Assembly: GCA_037130135.1 (NCBI GenBank)
Contig: JBAXTO010000009.1
Location: 17,276-81,275, forward strand
DNA: 64,000 nt
From: Bacteroidota bacterium
GTDB lineage: Bacteria > Bacteroidota > Bacteroidia > Chitinophagales > CAMDFR01
Direction: 5' to 3'
This document shows, piece after piece, positions 56,184 through 64,000 of the stretch. The notes under the pieces were generated by a model. The model saw only the letters and a list, made by a program, of their open reading frames with translations, searched no databases and was not told the DNA's origin. Every line of letters starts with the position of its first letter. Positions within the stretch are counted from its first letter, which is position 1. The position numbers and the translations under genes were made by a program.

Positions 56184-56375
56184 ATGAAAAGATTACTTTA
56201 TGTCATTTCTGACGTATTTCTTTTTGGTTCAGCCAGTATGATTTTTAATATTAGTGATGCTTTGTTTACACACTCCCCAGATAGTATTAGTATTATTCAA
56301 GATTCTATTTTTGGTTTGCTTCTAAGTATAGGAATCCAAAAGACTAGTACCAATGTATTTAACATAGTTAATTAA
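56184..56375 (+). CDS. small (63 aa) putative two-helix membrane protein, first gene of the SrfB/SrfC-like operon
   Basis: Two hydrophobic segments (LLYVISDVFLFGSASMIF and IFGLLLSIGI). It ends 12 nt before the 1005-aa gene. Coding status is uncertain. Confidence 0.4.
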   Translation: MKRLLYVISDVFLFGSASMIFNISDALFTHSPDSISIIQDSIFGLLLSIGIQKTSTNVFNIVN

Positions 56376-56387
56376 ATTATTTCCAGA

Positions 56388-59300
56388 ATGAAAAGAATCT
56401 CTCTTATTTCAAACTCAAGTATTCAGTATCACAAATTTAATTCTGAAGTTAATTTAGATTTTGCAAAAAAAAATAAGATATATTTTCACCAACCTTTTGA
56501 TTCTAATATTTTAGATTTCACATTAGATGCTTTATTTAAGGTTACTAATGAAAGCGTGGATACCTTTTATAGAAAGCAAGAGTTGATTGATCGAGATTTA
56601 ATAGTTAATAATAAATTGAAAGATGAAGTTGACTTATCTAATTGCCGTGAAATTGTTGATTTTTACGAAACTAATAATCTTAAAAAAGCTTTAAAGCATT
56701 TTAAGAAGAAATGGATCCCATTACCCTATTTTAAAGACAATTCTATAAATAAAGATGTGATGTATCCAACAGATTGGGTTCGTTTTTATTTTGATTGTGA
56801 TGAAGAATATAAAAAAGTGGAAATAGTTTTAGCTATTGATACTACTTTGTCAAAAAATGATGCTGATAAAACAGGTCCTCAGTTAAGTTTGAACCCTGAT
56901 GAAAATATCTTTAAAATTCATACTAACGATATAAATATTAGTAATTTTTTATTTAGCACTAATGCTACCACCTCATGGATTGAAGGGTATTTAGCAGATG
57001 TTTTTTATGCTAAAAATGATGAGTTGCGATATGAACAACCCGTAAAACAATACGTTTCTCACTATATCTTATTATTGAAGTGGATTGAAAGTTTAAAAGA
57101 AACACCCGAATTACAACTTTTTACTGATGATATCAAGAAAATTTCCGTTGATTTAGTTATTGATATTGGTAATTCTGCAACTTGTGCTTTGTTGTTTGAA
57201 AATCAAAATGATGATGCTTTTACCTTTGAAAAAGTAAAAAAAATAAATATTCAAGATTACTCCAATCCTCATCTGGAATATAATGATCCTTTTCCAATGA
57301 ATTTAGTTTTTAGGGAATCAAATTTTGGTACCATTAACAAAGAAAAATACCATAATAATAAATTTACTGTCCCTAGTTTTGTTAGGATTGGTTTTGAAGC
57401 AGAAAGTATCATTAATAATGCAAGTATTAACCTTAATTTAGGGTATGAGTTAAAGACATACAATTCTAGTCCCAAAAGATACCTATGGGATAAAAATCCA
57501 GCCGAAAAAGAATGGGAATTTTACCCAACAGATTTCAATAAAATTAAGAAAGTATATCTTAGTGGTATTTCAGAACAATTAAAAATTGACGGAGCCTTAA
57601 CAAATGGTGAAGTTTTTGGTTCGAAATCATTGTTTTCTAGAAATTCCTTAATGAAGTTTGTCTTCTTAGAACTTTTGATTCATGCTTATGTGCAGATAAA
57701 CTCCTACAGCTTTAGAGAGGAGCATGGCAATCTAACCGTTCCAAGAACATTAAAAAGGATTACTATTTCTTGTCCTACTGGAATGATCCAATACGAGCAA
57801 ATTGCCTTACGCGAAGCAGCAGAGGACGCATGTAAATTATTAAACAACTATGTCAAGTTTTATTTTGACTCAAACGACAATAAGTTTTGGTTTGAATTAC
57901 CCGAAATTATTCCTTCAATTAAGGACATTGCCAAAAAATTACCTGATTTAGAAGAACGTAAAGATTGGATGTACGATGAAGCCACTAGTTGCCAATTAGT
58001 ATTTATTTATAGTTTGTTATCAAAAAAATTACAGGGGAATAATTATGTAATTGAAAATTATTTATTCAAAAACAAAGATAAAATCACCGTTGGTTCTATT
58101 GATATTGGTGCTGGAACCACTGATGTAATGATTGCAAATTATTCTTTAAACAAAGAACATAAAACAATAAATATTAAACCCAATCCGCAATATTGGGATA
58201 GTTTTAAATTAGCAGGGGATGATCTATTAAAAGAAATCATTCAGCAAGTAATCATTGAAGGAACAGTAAATTCTGCTGTTGATGAGGGCTGTACAGGAGT
58301 CATTGAAAATTTTGCAAAATCAAAAGGAATAAGTAATATTTCTGATAAACTAAATGGCTTTTTTGGTCAGGATACCAATAATATCGGATATCTAGCCAAA
58401 ATGATGCGTAAATCTTTTATTCATCAAGTTGCCATTCCTATTGCTATCCATTACTTGAAAAATGCCAACAGCAAGAATAAATCAATAGTAAGCTTTGAAG
58501 AAATTATAGGTAAAGAGTTTAAAAATAAAGAATTGATTAATTATTTTGAGAAACATTTTGGTTTTAATTTTTTAGAAATAAAATGGAATATTAGTTCTCA
58601 AAAAATAAATGCAATAAATAGATCCGTTTTTGATAGCATTGTTAAACAGCTTTGTTTGGTTTTAAATCAATACCAATGTGACTTTGTGATTCTCTCCGGG
58701 AAACCTTGCTCTCTCGATAGTTTAGAAGAAATGTTTTTGAAATACCTCACCATTTCACCGAATAATTTAATCAATTTAAATACCTATTGGATCGGTAAAT
58801 GGTTCCCTTATTCTGATAATAGAGGTTTTGTAGAAGACCCGAAAACAATGGTAAGTGTTGGAGCAATCATAGCTTTAATGGCTGGGAAATTGAACAAGAT
58901 AAACGATTTAAAAGTGAATACTGATATCATTAAACAAAAATTAGTTTCTACTGCAGATTACATAGTAAAGAGCAATCACAATACTAAAGAAATTATCCTC
59001 ACCCCCAAGAAAAATGAAAATTCAGTTATGGTGCAGGCTTTACCATACCAGTTTGGATACGCAAAATATATTTCCAAAAACTATCCTGTTTCTGATTTGT
59101 ATAGCATTAGCCTCGATAGTTCAGAAATAAATAAAGCAGTAAAAATTCGTTTACCTAACAAGGAGCAATTATTTTATGAGGAACAAATCAACCTTGAAAA
59201 AAATCGAATATTTCAAAACTTACCACTAAAAATCACTTTGTCTAGAGAGTTAGATGATTCTAAAGAACAACTGAAAATTGAAAGTGTTGAAGATGCCGAA

Positions 59301-59405
59301 GGAAATGATAAACCAAATAAATTCTTCAAGCTAAATTATCAAACGTTAGATAACCAGAATGGTTATTGGTTAGATACTTGCGAGTTTATTTTAAGTGCTA
59401 GATAA
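56388..59405 (+). CDS. SrfB-like protein: large actin/Hsp70-fold (ASKHA) ATPase
   Basis: 1005 aa, the same size class as Salmonella SrfB. Phosphate-1 motif VDLVIDIGNSATCA (D259 at nt 57162). Phosphate-2 motif GSIDIGAGTTDVMI (nt 58101..58124). Adenosine-type motif DFVILSGKPCSL. Other SrfB-like landmarks as I recall the family: N-terminal LISNSSIQYHKF, SPKRYLWD, FKLAGDDLL. No signal peptide or TM segment. Confidence 0.8.
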   Translation: MKRISLISNSSIQYHKFNSEVNLDFAKKNKIYFHQPFDSNILDFTLDALFKVTNESVDTFYRKQELIDRDLIVNNKLKDEVDLSNCREIVDFYETNNLKKALKHFKKKWIPLPYFKDNSINKDVMYPTDWVRFYFDCDEEYKKVEIVLAIDTTLSKNDADKTGPQLSLNPDENIFKIHTNDINISNFLFSTNATTSWIEGYLADVFYAKNDELRYEQPVKQYVSHYILLLKWIESLKETPELQLFTDDIKKISVDLVIDIGNSATCALLFENQNDDAFTFEKVKKINIQDYSNPHLEYNDPFPMNLVFRESNFGTINKEKYHNNKFTVPSFVRIGFEAESIINNASINLNLGYELKTYNSSPKRYLWDKNPAEKEWEFYPTDFNKIKKVYLSGISEQLKIDGALTNGEVFGSKSLFSRNSLMKFVFLELLIHAYVQINSYSFREEHGNLTVPRTLKRITISCPTGMIQYEQIALREAAEDACKLLNNYVKFYFDSNDNKFWFELPEIIPSIKDIAKKLPDLEERKDWMYDEATSCQLVFIYSLLSKKLQGNNYVIENYLFKNKDKITVGSIDIGAGTTDVMIANYSLNKEHKTINIKPNPQYWDSFKLAGDDLLKEIIQQVIIEGTVNSAVDEGCTGVIENFAKSKGISNISDKLNGFFGQDTNNIGYLAKMMRKSFIHQVAIPIAIHYLKNANSKNKSIVSFEEIIGKEFKNKELINYFEKHFGFNFLEIKWNISSQKINAINRSVFDSIVKQLCLVLNQYQCDFVILSGKPCSLDSLEEMFLKYLTISPNNLINLNTYWIGKWFPYSDNRGFVEDPKTMVSVGAIIALMAGKLNKINDLKVNTDIIKQKLVSTADYIVKSNHNTKEIILTPKKNENSVMVQALPYQFGYAKYISKNYPVSDLYSISLDSSEINKAVKIRLPNKEQLFYEEQINLEKNRIFQNLPLKITLSRELDDSKEQLKIESVEDAEGNDKPNKFFKLNYQTLDNQNGYWLDTCEFILSAR

Positions 59406-59408
59406 ATT

Positions 59409-63030: not shown

Positions 63031-63032
63031 TT

Positions 63033-63527
63033 ATGAGAAATTTCTTCTATAAAAATTGGGTACTGTATTACGTTACTTTTTTTCTATTAATAGGATTATT
63101 GATTTATGCTTTGTTATGGACTCCAGATTTAAGACTATATACCAAAACAATAAATGACTTAAATAATCAATTGCAAGATTGTAATAACAAGCCAATAAAA
63201 AGTGAAACACCAGACAAAGTAGACAAGACTATTAACTGTGATGCTACAGTTCAATCTGGAGGAACCGGTGAAACAACCACCCAACACGATCTTGGAAAAA
63301 GCAGTGGAACTGTCGTCATTGAATATAATATGAAACTTTTGCCAGATCAAATTGATGTATACTATGACAATGTCCTAGTTGCGTCATCTAATGGCCTTGT
63401 AAGTGGTGAAAATAGCGTTCAATTCAAATATACAGCTGTAGCAGGAAAACCAACTTATTGCATCGTTCAAATTTCAGCACCAGATGACGATACGGAATGG
63501 AATTATTTATTAAATTGTCCACAATAA
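63033..63527 (+). CDS. N-terminally anchored membrane protein with a small Cys-bounded beta-rich domain
   Basis: 164 aa: TM (WVLYYVTFFLLIGLLIYALLW), a short helical segment, then INCDATVQSGGTGETTT...VVIEYNMKLLPDQIDVYYDNVLVASS...YCIVQISAPDDDTEWNYLLNCPQ. It starts 2 nt after the previous stop. Confidence 0.65.
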   Translation: MRNFFYKNWVLYYVTFFLLIGLLIYALLWTPDLRLYTKTINDLNNQLQDCNNKPIKSETPDKVDKTINCDATVQSGGTGETTTQHDLGKSSGTVVIEYNMKLLPDQIDVYYDNVLVASSNGLVSGENSVQFKYTAVAGKPTYCIVQISAPDDDTEWNYLLNCPQ

Positions 63528-63535
63528 GCTAAAAT

Positions 63536-64000
63536 ATGAAAAACAATAAATATCCTTTGCGTTACTATGTATTTTTATTCTTAATGCTAGTTTTGACCAT
63601 TATACTTTGGTTGCTTTTTTATCATCTGGCTCCTGTTCATAATTTGAATAATAATGCAATTGTAAGTAGTTCACTAAATCAAAACGACTATTGGCAGCAA
63701 GATTATCTACCAAAACAAGTAGGACAAATAATCCCTATTGACACTACTAAAATCATAAATGACTCTATCAATCAAAGAAGGATTGTTTCTAATTTAGTCA
63801 ATATTGCTATAAAAAACACAAGTAGTTCCATAGCTAAGTTTGCCAGCGATTTAAAACAAAATTATCCATCTAACGATTACAAAATAGTATACATTGATAG
63901 TGTTATTAGTAGGCTGCAGGTAGAACTTCCTGAAAACGAGAGAGAGCATTTTAAAACTGAGGTAAAAACCAAACTGAACGGATATAAATTATTAGTTTGG
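63536..64000 (+). CDS. N-terminally anchored membrane protein, 5' part (open to the right window edge; absent from the ORF track)
   Basis: The ATG at 63536 is 8 nt after the previous stop. Translation MKNNKYPLRYYVFLFLMLVLTIILWLLFYHL...KTKLNGYKLLVW runs 155 codons with no stop to nt 64000. One N-terminal TM segment. Confidence 0.6.
   Translation, partial: MKNNKYPLRYYVFLFLMLVLTIILWLLFYHLAPVHNLNNNAIVSSSLNQNDYWQQDYLPKQVGQIIPIDTTKIINDSINQRRIVSNLVNIAIKNTSSSIAKFASDLKQNYPSNDYKIVYIDSVISRLQVELPENEREHFKTEVKTKLNGYKLLVW

Follow-up and report, generated by a model that had tools for sequence, protein, structure and literature searches.

The 64,000-nucleotide (nt) stretch of Bacteroidota DNA analyzed here (the window) ends in a cluster of genes encoding the large proteins SrfB and SrfC and several membrane-anchored proteins. 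This locus belongs to a conserved variant of the SrfABC system, here called Srf-S8, of which the window holds the 5' part; it is not a wholly new machine. It is of the SrfABC kind, because SrfB, SrfC and a profile-detectable N-terminal domain of SrfA (SrfA-N) are present. New are the linkage of SrfA-N to a subtilase of the S8 family and the conserved gene set in which it occurs, which make Srf-S8 a real, conserved and uncharacterized variant of SrfABC. In the searched literature srfABC is described in Proteobacteria only, with a lipocalin-type SrfA, and neither a protease-linked SrfA nor an extended gene set was found.

Organization of the locus

The original prediction, made from the sequence of the window, described seven open reading frames (ORFs) on the + strand as one operon pairing SrfB and SrfC with four small membrane anchors. 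The coordinates of the ORFs and the spacers of 12, 3, 2, 5, 2 and 8 nt are confirmed, as are their tight linkage and common direction. The ORFs are, in order, a 63-amino-acid (aa) ORF (56184-56375), srfB (56388-59405, 1005 aa), a 39-aa ORF (59409-59528), srfC (59531-62311, 926 aa), srfA' (62317-63030, encoding the 237-aa tail-anchored protein p237), the gene of the 164-aa N-anchored periplasmic protein p164 (63033-63527), and an ORF running from 63536 to the window edge at 64000, which comprises the first 155 of the 463 codons of the S8 subtilase. The gene order is thus srfB-srfC-srfA', and the canonical order srfA-srfB-srfC is absent.

Five of the seven ORFs hold as operon members, while the 63-aa and 39-aa ORFs are not components of the system (see below), and the operon is cut by the window edge: the window holds the first 7.6 kb of an operon of about ten genes, which runs at least eight genes past the edge. 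The part beyond the edge was studied in the proxy loci L005 and L006 (99.2% identical; here and below, L-numbers denote related loci or contigs, mostly metagenomic, and P-numbers related proteins). The block common to the window, L005 and L006 spans 7.6 kb at 99.2% identity and begins at window position 56367, that is, 21 nt 5' of the srfB ATG, the flanks further upstream being unrelated between the window and L005.

Hydropathy analysis agrees with the predicted topology: SrfB and SrfC lack transmembrane (TM) segments, the 237-aa protein has one at its C-terminus, and the 164-aa protein and the edge ORF have theirs at the N-terminus. As to the four small membrane anchors, the 63-aa ORF is not conserved, while the other three are indeed membrane-anchored and of the SrfA type. 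Two of these are more than anchors, since the edge ORF carries a periplasmic S8 protease and p164 a PPC-like beta-jelly-roll, both real periplasmic domains.

SrfB and SrfC

The predicted family membership of the two large proteins is borne out by full-length Pfam matches in a profile search. SrfB matches PF07520 over residues 3-998 of 1005 (521.8 bits with a cutoff of 27.1, E 5e-156), and SrfC matches PF10139 (Virul_Fac) over residues 37-912 of 926 (366.8 bits with a cutoff of 28.1, E 3.6e-109). The residues named earlier are also correct. SrfB has the motifs DIGNSAT at D259 and DIGAGTT at D572, and residues D259, G261, D572, G574, G576, T577, T578 and D579 are invariant across seven distant homologues. 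In SrfC, G70, S72, Q73, G75, the Walker A lysine K76 and S77, together with D345, F346, P347 and G348 of the DFPG (DxxG) motif at D345, are invariant in six distant homologues. The motif residues of both proteins are invariant in homologues down to 22-25% identity. Neither protein shows a TM-like segment in the hydropathy scan or a signal peptide.

An actin/Hsp70-type (ASKHA) fold of SrfB, a predicted cytoplasmic ATPase, is moderately supported by profile alignments, in which the putative phosphate-1, phosphate-2 and adenosine motifs appear in collinear order. In particular, SrfB 684-795 aligns with DnaK 256-365 (hhalign, probability 75%, E 2.6e-5), and SrfB 505-582 aligns with the phosphate-2 region of FtsA (hhalign, E 5e-4), collinearly with the DnaK match. 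Sequence searches of the PDB with SrfB were empty.

SrfC is a predicted cytoplasmic P-loop nucleoside triphosphatase (NTPase), and sequence and profile searches of the PDB found no significant solved-structure relative. The earlier description of SrfC as dynamin-like is not supported by the comparisons made here. It does resemble dynamin-like and GBP large GTPases in being a large P-loop protein, in its conserved G1 (GxxxxGKS) and G3 (DxxG) motifs and in the length of its C-terminal region. However, only the P-loop could be aligned with E. coli CrfC/RdcA (27 columns at a probability of 8.5%), the PDB profile matches to GBP1, GBP2, GBP5 and Der are non-significant (E 0.3-1.3), and no conserved G4 (N/TKxD) is seen in the alignment. 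The long C-terminal region has no family or solved-structure match.

The SrfA N-domain encoded after srfC

In p237 a conserved N-domain (approximately residues 1-146) is followed by a disordered linker of acidic character, a conserved amphipathic segment next to the membrane (SFLEFLKWFAS) and the TM helix at 208-237, at which the protein ends, and hence it has no periplasmic domain. In canonical SrfA, as described in a 2026 preprint (bioRxiv 10.64898/2026.09.18.752743), a cytoplasmic N-domain leads through a disordered region and a TM helix to a periplasmic lipocalin-like domain. The layout of p237 is that of the N-terminal half of canonical SrfA, since the N-domain, the disordered linker and the TM helix correspond.

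A profile of the p237 family, run against 1.84 billion representatives, retrieved 163 clusters. The only recurring family among 34 close members of the p237 family is SrfA_fam (NCBIfam NF040486), matched directly by 11 of them (best 1.6e-8); the L002 orthologue of p237 matches it at 17 bits (E 0.003), and none of the scores obtained for the family reaches the cutoff of 150 bits. Among the longer or more remote profile matches, 34 of 46 match SrfA_fam (best 3.9e-39), and 29 of the same 46 carry Peptidase_S8. Moreover, residues 43-146 of p237 align collinearly with residues 50-162 of Klebsiella SrfA (hhalign, E 4.7e-4), the alignment spanning the motif pairs DWFS/DWYSSF and NG..I.WGW/NGTLVITFWGF, and an iterative hidden Markov model (HMM) scores Klebsiella SrfA at 7.6e-34. 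Judged by these profile comparisons, p237 is a divergent, truncated and relocated SrfA N-domain with its anchor, encoded after srfC. The original prediction held that the locus had no SrfA; it remains true that no SrfA-sized gene precedes the srfB-srfC pair, but the SrfA N-domain and its anchor are provided by the 237-aa protein encoded after srfC.

SrfA-type proteins also appear to share a juxtamembrane and TM module. An HMM of this module, trained only on distant loci, gives 19-29 bits for p237 orthologues and 13-24 bits for p164 orthologues, while the other TM proteins of the operon (c5, c7, c9; see below) score at most 4.2 bits.

The S8 subtilase and its fusion with SrfA-N

The ORF at the window edge encodes the beginning of a 463-aa N-anchored S8 subtilase with a TM helix at residues 6-35. 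Its catalytic domain lies past the window edge, and the triad was therefore read in the 99%-identical full-length copy from L005, which carries PF00082 with catalytic residues D203 (IDNG), H238 (HGTH) and S414 (GTSMA) intact; the protein is predicted to be an active subtilase. The L002 orthologue matches PF00082 at 3.3e-49, its best NCBIfam match being the mycosin of type VII secretion systems (T7SS) at 2.2e-42 (TIGR03921, 145.5 bits with a cutoff of 278.75). Solved subtilisins from the PDB align to the protein from about residue 176. Some 140 residues separate the anchor from the catalytic domain, in the position of a propeptide. A subtilase propeptide (I9) in residues 36-175 was considered, found no family match and is kept by position only; pre-domain residues 50-155 likewise gave no family match.

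SrfA-N, a TM helix and an S8 domain occur on one polypeptide in the Runella plasmid and in L009, L011, L019 and L020. The fusion is seen in 29 of the 46 profile matches mentioned above and in 30 of 48 metagenomic loci having a downstream S8 gene, and the ordered D..H..S motifs are kept in 24 of 29 fused members. In public annotation the fused proteins are called 'subtilisin family serine protease' or 'hypothetical'. Loci with SrfA-N::S8 usually retain a separate SrfA-N gene as well, immediately after srfC. The layout SrfB-SrfC-SrfA-N-p164-SrfA-N::S8 is probably ancestral, as it recurs in more distant loci, while in the window lineage (SrfC identity at least 47%) S8 has lost its own SrfA-N. As SrfA-N is joined in most relatives through a single TM helix to a subtilase, SrfB and SrfC would act at the inner membrane face, and the fusion argues that the business end of the SrfA adaptor would be periplasmic.

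The possibility that p237, p164 and S8 are one split polypeptide was rejected, as distant loci have a stand-alone SrfA-N in addition to SrfA-N::S8; the C-terminal extension of the Runella protein, moreover, is unrelated to p164. In two human gut metagenome contigs (L090 and L091, 44% GC) a gene for a 912-aa SrfA-N::S8 fusion is followed by c5, c4 and c7, and therefore the system is not confined to aquatic Flavobacteria.

The anchored protein p164

The second periplasmic component, p164, has a TM helix, a post-TM helix, a variable linker and a beta-jelly-roll C-domain with four cysteines. Its AlphaFold2 model has a mean predicted local distance difference test (pLDDT) score of 75, with 80-90 in the C-domain. 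The top Foldseek matches of this model in the PDB are pre-peptidase C-terminal (PPC) and collagen-binding domains (5sv5, 6e-5; 1nqj, TMt 0.77), and the C-domain also matches the C-terminal domain of Tk-SP subtilisin. The modelled C-domain thus has a predicted protease-accessory, PPC-like fold. The idea that p164 is the missing lipocalin domain of SrfA was rejected, since the fold matches PPC and collagen-binding domains.

A C-domain of the p164 type is present in 33 of 51 loci, and an orthologue is found in the distant locus L019 (i-E 2e-46). In L001 and in P0154-P0158, the N-terminal ~50 residues of p164 are kept and the C-domain is exchanged for a different one. This alternative C-domain on a p164-type anchor was observed in L001 (13505-14110), in P0154-P0158 and in L020 (9343-9996), with the motif L(V/K)W....DDLDL.(V/L)..P.G..I(Y/F).......GG.LDID(L/M)N, and may resemble a beta-sandwich of the DUF2135/YfaP type. 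L019 and L020 also contain arrays of three or four SrfA-type anchors with different heads.

Conservation of the gene set and the downstream genes

The arrangement of the locus was tallied in 78 metagenomic loci with SrfC identity of 28-90%, counting informative loci in each case. SrfB is immediately upstream of SrfC in 54/56 loci, SrfA-N is encoded by the next gene after SrfC in 65/69, and S8 is found downstream in 48/51. Further genes follow S8, namely c5 (a protein with four TM segments, 35/41), c4 (a GTPase of ~400 aa, 36/41), c9 (bitopic, 26/41) and c7 (N-anchored, 30/41), as well as c8 (secreted). The conserved order is SrfB, SrfC, SrfA-N, p164-like protein, S8, c5, the DO-GTPase-like c4 and the bitopic proteins, and none of the labelled genes in the 78 loci lies on the opposite strand. 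An arrangement in which SrfB-SrfC recurs with a following SrfA-N gene in 65 of 69 informative loci is far beyond chance.

The c4 protein of L002 has a Pfam match to DO-GTPase1/2 (4.3e-7, 29.9 bits with a cutoff of 27), and an unmarked match is seen in L014; in general, c4 proteins of the Flavobacterium-type loci pass or approach the DO-GTPase1 thresholds. In five such loci c4 has Walker A, IV(E/D)VPGE and NKFD motifs, and four more distant c4 proteins match the Walker A pattern only. No GASH domain was found in the downstream proteins, in which fn3 is seen only faintly in L014 and L015.

In seven loci the c5-c4-c9-c7 block lies 5' of srfB and not 3' of S8. This arrangement was noted in a subgroup comprising L049, L051, L054, L055, L058 and L061-L063, and therefore the two halves of the operon behave as separable but linked modules. 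The 3' tail is variable and includes an M23 lipoprotein (L005), YARHG, YkuD, OmpA-like, SH3_3 and fn3/Lcl_C proteins, and a TM Ser/Thr kinase; the latter ends the operon in L019. A PorP_SprF gene is a neighbour in L020. Identity between Flavobacterium-type loci is 82-89% for SrfB, 71-85% for SrfC, 69-83% for S8 and 60-82% for SrfA-N, and only 35-59% for c9 and 34-51% for c7 and c8.

The hosts named so far are Bacteroidota (Flavobacterium, Runella), the contig titles naming freshwater, marine and human-gut metagenomes. One contig of the set (L002, CALRRY020000020.1) bears the title 'MAG: Variovorax paradoxus'; its GC content is 28.5%, and it shares 82-85% identity with the Flavobacterium-type operon of the window. 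Variovorax genomes are high in GC, and this contig is almost certainly mis-binned.

The srfB/srfC junction

The 39-aa ORF, listed in the original prediction as an operon component lacking TM segments, is indeed TM-less but turned out to be gene debris. It lies in a junction insert (59406-59530, + strand) of ~118 nt that is missing in L001 and L002, where 7 nt separate the srfB stop from the srfC ATG. It keeps the start of a DUF1810 gene and its last 23 aa (61% identity to the DUF1810 C-terminus, E 8e-9), while in L014 (6791-7213), L023 (4673-5089), L024 (9579-9998) and L053 (1424-1843) this junction holds the DUF1810 gene in intact form, with 140 aa. Given the intact gene at the same site and the matching ends, the 39-aa ORF is an internally deleted passenger gene, and the junction is a recurrent slot for DUF1810. 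The in-frame 39-aa remnant is shared by the window and L005/L006, and DUF1810 is absent from the slot in L001, L002, L015 and L016.

The upstream region and neighbouring genes

The 63-aa two-helix ORF is not a component of the system either, because it lies outside the block shared with L005/L006, and tblastn searches of 100 related loci gave no match to it. It is part of an AT-rich region (55587-56387, + strand, 23.6% GC), which is probably a promoter or leader and not a conserved gene. The region 5' of srfB does not align with L001 or L002, and its sole DNA match is the window's own flank in L013, which ends ~336 nt before the srfB ATG. L013 is an independent assembly of the left flank, 100% identical over 464 nt after the gene of a 211-aa protein, and breaks at ~56050. 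This break is close to 56367, where the homology with L005 sets in; the 23.6% GC spacer is a point of breakage in assembly as well as in recombination.

Some 310 nt 5' of srfB, at 56049-56079 (+ strand), TTTG-N23-TAATTTTG fits the -33/-7 promoter pattern of Bacteroidota. It is weak evidence, since 12 such matches were found in the window with 6.1 expected. A near-perfect palindromic hairpin, CCCAATCCGCAATATTGGG, at 58179-58197 is terminator-like on both strands, but is probably fortuitous, as it lies within the coding sequence of srfB. No Rfam family was found in 53-64 kb, and no tRNA in the 64-kb window.

The 211-aa membrane protein (54951-55586, + strand) consists of an N-terminal module, a linker and DUF805 (3.7e-11), and is a possible peripheral member of the system. 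An HMM of its ~66-aa N-module finds one copy in the 64-kb window; elsewhere the module was seen only in tandem paralogues at the 3' ends of the srf operons of L005, L001, L002 and L016, an association drawn from a sample of loci that had all been chosen around srf. The first 15 residues of the 211-aa protein are identical to the start of the last L005 gene. Homology search with the whole protein was swamped by DUF805 matches and is uninformative for the N-module; P0309 is 100% identical to the 211-aa protein.

The N-module has the motif xGLHxLIxSRLIEKxGNVKL..YGKALG..LLFKxLEIEETIDW, no Pfam family match, and 2-3 tandem paralogues at the 3' end of an srf operon. In addition to the window copy (54951-55586, + strand), it was located in L005 (17820-18602, 19431-20642 and from 20669), L001 (from 21384), L002 (from 21240) and L016 (17888-20052). 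In the paralogues its fusion partners are a Zn-ribbon, a TM helix and periplasmic domains that vary, YARHG being one. It looks like an adaptor common to polymorphic membrane proteins.

Other neighbours on the left are encoded on the - strand. A 114-aa XRE/HTH_3 regulator with a C-terminal coiled-coil (54276-54620) is divergent to the 211-aa gene, weakly matches HTH_VI and RmrA of PADLOC (1.6e-6 to 1e-5), and is not conserved 5' of other srf loci. Overlapping 192-aa and 128-aa ORFs in different frames (53237-54137), both with MORN-like 'YxxGkxxGxxxxWYENGqL' repeats, probably represent a single gene disrupted by a frameshift; in the independent contig L013 the ORFs are divided in the same way. 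The 1443-aa secreted protein with a CHU_C domain (C-terminal sorting domain of the type IX secretion system type; 45927-50258) is typical Bacteroidota surface-protein cargo, unrelated to the srf finding.

Accessory character of the operon

Eight different upstream contexts were seen across the sampled loci, each sampled lineage having its own. Among them are the XRE regulator and the 211-aa gene in the window, MBOAT and GDSL lipase genes in L005, QueA and photolyase genes in L016, type I HsdR, GmrSD and HTH_17 in L015, and a complete BREX-1 system on the Runella plasmid. As near-identical cassettes sit in unrelated flanks, the srf operon is to all appearances an accessory, mobile cassette, in agreement with the earlier description of the region as an accessory patch. 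A phage origin was considered and excluded: SrfB matches none of 50,697 phage records, and only one of 2.9 million viral contigs matched, at the contig edge.

Comparison with known systems

In comparison with the canonical SrfABC (Salmonella enterica, Xenorhabdus stockiae, and a Klebsiella plasmid, L004), SrfB and SrfC of the window are homologous over the full length, with 26-27% identity to the Klebsiella proteins; the SrfA N-domain also stands on a single-pass anchor, and the genes are tightly linked and co-directional. The differences concern the gene order (B-C-A' instead of A-B-C) and SrfA', which lacks the lipocalin-like C-domain; instead, S8 and a PPC-like domain are found on SrfA-type anchors. 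The window locus thus departs from the canonical features in gene order, in the SrfA lipocalin-like C-domain and in the SrfA_fam cutoff. Moreover, the neighbours of the Klebsiella genes (TerB-domain, 339-aa and vWA proteins, a Lol-like ABC ATPase and permease, and FGE) are seen in none of the 78 loci, and the canonical type is reported from alpha-, beta- and gamma-proteobacteria (PMC6950479), while the hosts of Srf-S8 named so far are Bacteroidota.

The DO-GTPase/GAP1 conflict systems (PMC7159879) are similar in the match of c4 to DO-GTPase, with the acidic Walker B Glu/Asp and NKFD, in their membrane-proximal character, in having many TM partners and an Hsp70-superfamily ATPase, and in a variable periphery. 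However, GAP1 (N, M, C) is absent, no GASH was found downstream, and c4 lies outside the window; SrfB and SrfC are not mentioned in the paper describing these systems (PMC7159879). Since the defining partner GAP1 is absent, Srf-S8 is not a DO-GTPase/GAP1 system, though c4 belongs to the DO-GTPase family.

Mycosin (MycP) is the best NCBIfam match of S8, with E-values reaching 6.5e-72 in fused relatives. Mycosin is a membrane-tethered subtilase integrated with an ATPase-containing membrane machine and anchored C-terminally. S8, in contrast, is anchored N-terminally, scores well below the equivalog cutoff (145 versus 279 bits), occurs without Ecc/Esx genes, and belongs to diderm hosts. In mechanotransmission of the FtsEX-EnvC and MacB/LolCDE type, cytoplasmic nucleotide hydrolysis is transmitted across the inner membrane, and FtsEX controls a periplasmic hydrolase. 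Here the likeness is a works-like analogy only: M23/LytM-family proteins occur in both (the M23 lipoprotein in L005), but there is no ABC transporter in the Srf-S8 loci, and the NTPases are of unrelated families.

Finally, neighbours of canonical srfABC fall into the classes of TagT (COG1136), TagS (COG4591) and TagR (COG1262) of TagQRST-PpkA, the module that senses envelope damage for the Pseudomonas H1 type VI secretion system (T6SS) (PMC13584744), and genes of post-translational T6SS control have been noted beside srfABC in Xenorhabdus (PMC6950479). This likeness is at the annotation level and concerns the canonical type; the genes are absent from Srf-S8, and no T6SS genes were seen in any locus.

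Proposed mechanism and alternative explanations

Beyond the observed family identities, intact motifs, topology by hydropathy, SrfA-N::S8 fusions, gene order and accessory context, we infer a physical complex, a direction of coupling, substrates and a biological role. In the best explanation, whose prospects we rate as about even, SrfB and SrfC on an SrfA-N anchor would be coupled across the membrane to a periplasmic protease. The actin/Hsp70-type ATPase SrfB and the P-loop, GTPase-like NTPase SrfC, both soluble and presumably cytoplasmic, would assemble on the cytoplasmic SrfA-N domain of p237, which may form a membrane complex with the paralogous single-pass anchors of p164 and S8. Nucleotide-driven changes in the cytoplasm could thereby be coupled to the periplasmic protease. 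The favoured direction is inside-out, that is, the NTPases would gate or activate S8. The 4-TM protein, the DO-GTPase-family GTPase and the bitopic proteins constitute a second conserved module, and the fast-evolving periplasmic proteins and cell-wall enzymes would be likely substrates or outputs. The role would most likely be an accessory, envelope-directed conflict or damage response.

As to the canonical type, SrfA, SrfB and SrfC form a heteromeric complex in X. stockiae (PMC6950479), and in an AlphaFold3 model SrfB, and then SrfC, bind the bitopic SrfA (bioRxiv 10.64898/2026.09.18.752743). The broad picture drawn in the original prediction, a machine driven by nucleotides and docked on anchors in the membrane, holds.

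Several observations speak against this explanation. The p237-SrfA link runs through the family and its profile and not through the window protein itself, which gives no direct match to SrfA_fam (cutoff 150 bits), and whose AlphaFold2 model is poor (pLDDT 58) and has no fold match. With the juxtamembrane/TM module HMM, the window's own p164 scores only 1.8 bits, so that module homology is absent, and the S8 anchors are marginal at 2.5-11.6 bits. Since S8 of the window lineage has no SrfA-N, the coupling there must run via separate polypeptides. Transcription as a single unit would be expected from the spacing and conservation, but sigma-70-type promoter and terminator scans were uninformative, sigma-70 matches being fewer than in shuffles; the sigma-70 promoter is, however, the wrong model for Bacteroidota. 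GAP1, the defining partner of DO-GTPases, was detected neither in 15 downstream proteins (E<=0.05) nor in L005 c9, c7, c8 and c5 (E<=10). As regards the conflict role, PADLOC-DB 2.0 gave no match for SrfC, p237, p164, c5, c4 or c9, and most loci lie outside recognizable defence islands, which leaves 'conflict' weakly supported.

Among the alternatives, the operon could be an anti-phage or abortive infection system, in which the cytoplasmic NTPases sense infection, and death or arrest of the cell is then brought about by the periplasmic protease together with the cell-wall enzymes. A dedicated role of this kind is possible but weakly supported, and we regard it as unlikely: of 12 Srf-S8 loci with Pfam or RefSeq annotation, only two adjoin known defence genes, a share not clearly higher than background. 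On the Runella plasmid the operon is directly 3' of the complete BREX-1 system, and in L015 it is 3' of type I HsdR, GmrSD and HTH_17. The accessory cassette with variable flanks and the fast evolution and domain swapping of peripheral proteins would fit as well, as would the DO-GTPase-family protein, a family defined in conflict systems (PMC7159879). S8 peptidases also occur in known defence systems, with matches to a generic PADLOC subtilase model (1.2e-18) and to IteS (1.6e-5). On the other hand, no PADLOC model was matched by SrfB, SrfC, p237, p164, c5, c4 or c9, SrfB itself giving only a faint match to PDC-M61B (E 0.011), GAP1 is absent, and the periplasmic orientation of most conserved components would be unusual in a sensor of phage replication. 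The phage-defence role suggested earlier therefore lacks support, in view of the PADLOC result, the absence of SrfB from phage records and the 2/12 count.

Equally improbable is the reverse direction of signalling, outside-in, in which the periplasmic domains (S8, PPC-like) sense or process an envelope cue, and the SrfA-type anchors switch the output of SrfB and SrfC. The anatomy is the same as in the best explanation, and variable periplasmic heads on a common anchor are what one would expect of sensors; but a catalytically intact protease looks more like an effector than a sensor, and neither SrfB nor SrfC yielded an identifiable cytoplasmic effector domain. Relay of damage inward is known for the TagR, TagS and TagT classes (FGE-, LolE- and LolD-type) in Pseudomonas, and genes of these classes adjoin canonical srfABC, but the likeness to TagQRST goes no further than annotation and COG class, and none of the 78 loci has those genes. 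The TM Ser/Thr kinase at the end of the L019 operon would also suit such signalling.

Somewhat less probable again is a housekeeping machine for envelope or motility remodelling (surface motility, cell-wall turnover), with no part in conflict. In Salmonella, swarming is poor in mutants of srfB, srfC or the operon, which is controlled by FlhDC (PMC4219756). Distal peptidoglycan-active or -binding domains (M23, YkuD, OmpA-like, SH3_3) and the PorP_SprF neighbour in L020 point the same way. Nevertheless, near-identical cassettes in unrelated flanks, varied contexts including a plasmid, and very fast divergence and domain swapping of the peripheral parts fit accessory genes better than core physiology.

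An exported tripartite 'SrfABC toxin' against eukaryotic cells, as proposed for Xenorhabdus, is very improbable here. Lysates expressing X. stockiae SrfABC show cytotoxic and insecticidal activity, and a complex of the three proteins is formed (PMC6950479); export in vesicles has also been argued (bioRxiv 10.64898/2026.09.18.752743). But SrfB and SrfC have neither signal peptide nor TM segment, SrfA-N is membrane-anchored, the conserved partners are a periplasmic protease and inner-membrane proteins with no delivery apparatus, and the contig titles place the hosts in freshwater, marine and gut metagenomes. That unrelated genes lie side by side by chance, for which the uninformative sigma-70-type scan might be cited, is effectively refuted by the spacers of 2-12 nt, the order conserved in 78 loci across 28-90% SrfC identity, and the fusion of SrfA-N with S8 in many loci.

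Significance

SrfB and SrfC, two large proteins of wide distribution, carry the annotation 'virulence factors', and their known effects are a swarming defect in Salmonella and the cytotoxicity of Xenorhabdus lysates. The SrfA-N::protease fusion makes the long-standing question of their function testable. The Srf-S8 gene set, previously annotated only as 'hypothetical' or 'subtilisin family', spans freshwater, marine and gut metagenomes.

In a broader and more speculative reading, which we consider rather unlikely, SrfA would be a universal TM adaptor, whose N-domain recruits SrfB and SrfC and whose anchor displays interchangeable heads (lipocalin-like, S8 protease, PPC-like and others), and Srf-S8 would be a widespread envelope-spanning immune or damage machine. 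Nucleotide-driven remodelling in the cytoplasm might then unleash a periplasmic protease cascade on the cell's own or an invader's envelope. If true, this would recast the 'SrfABC toxin' as a membrane signalling device.

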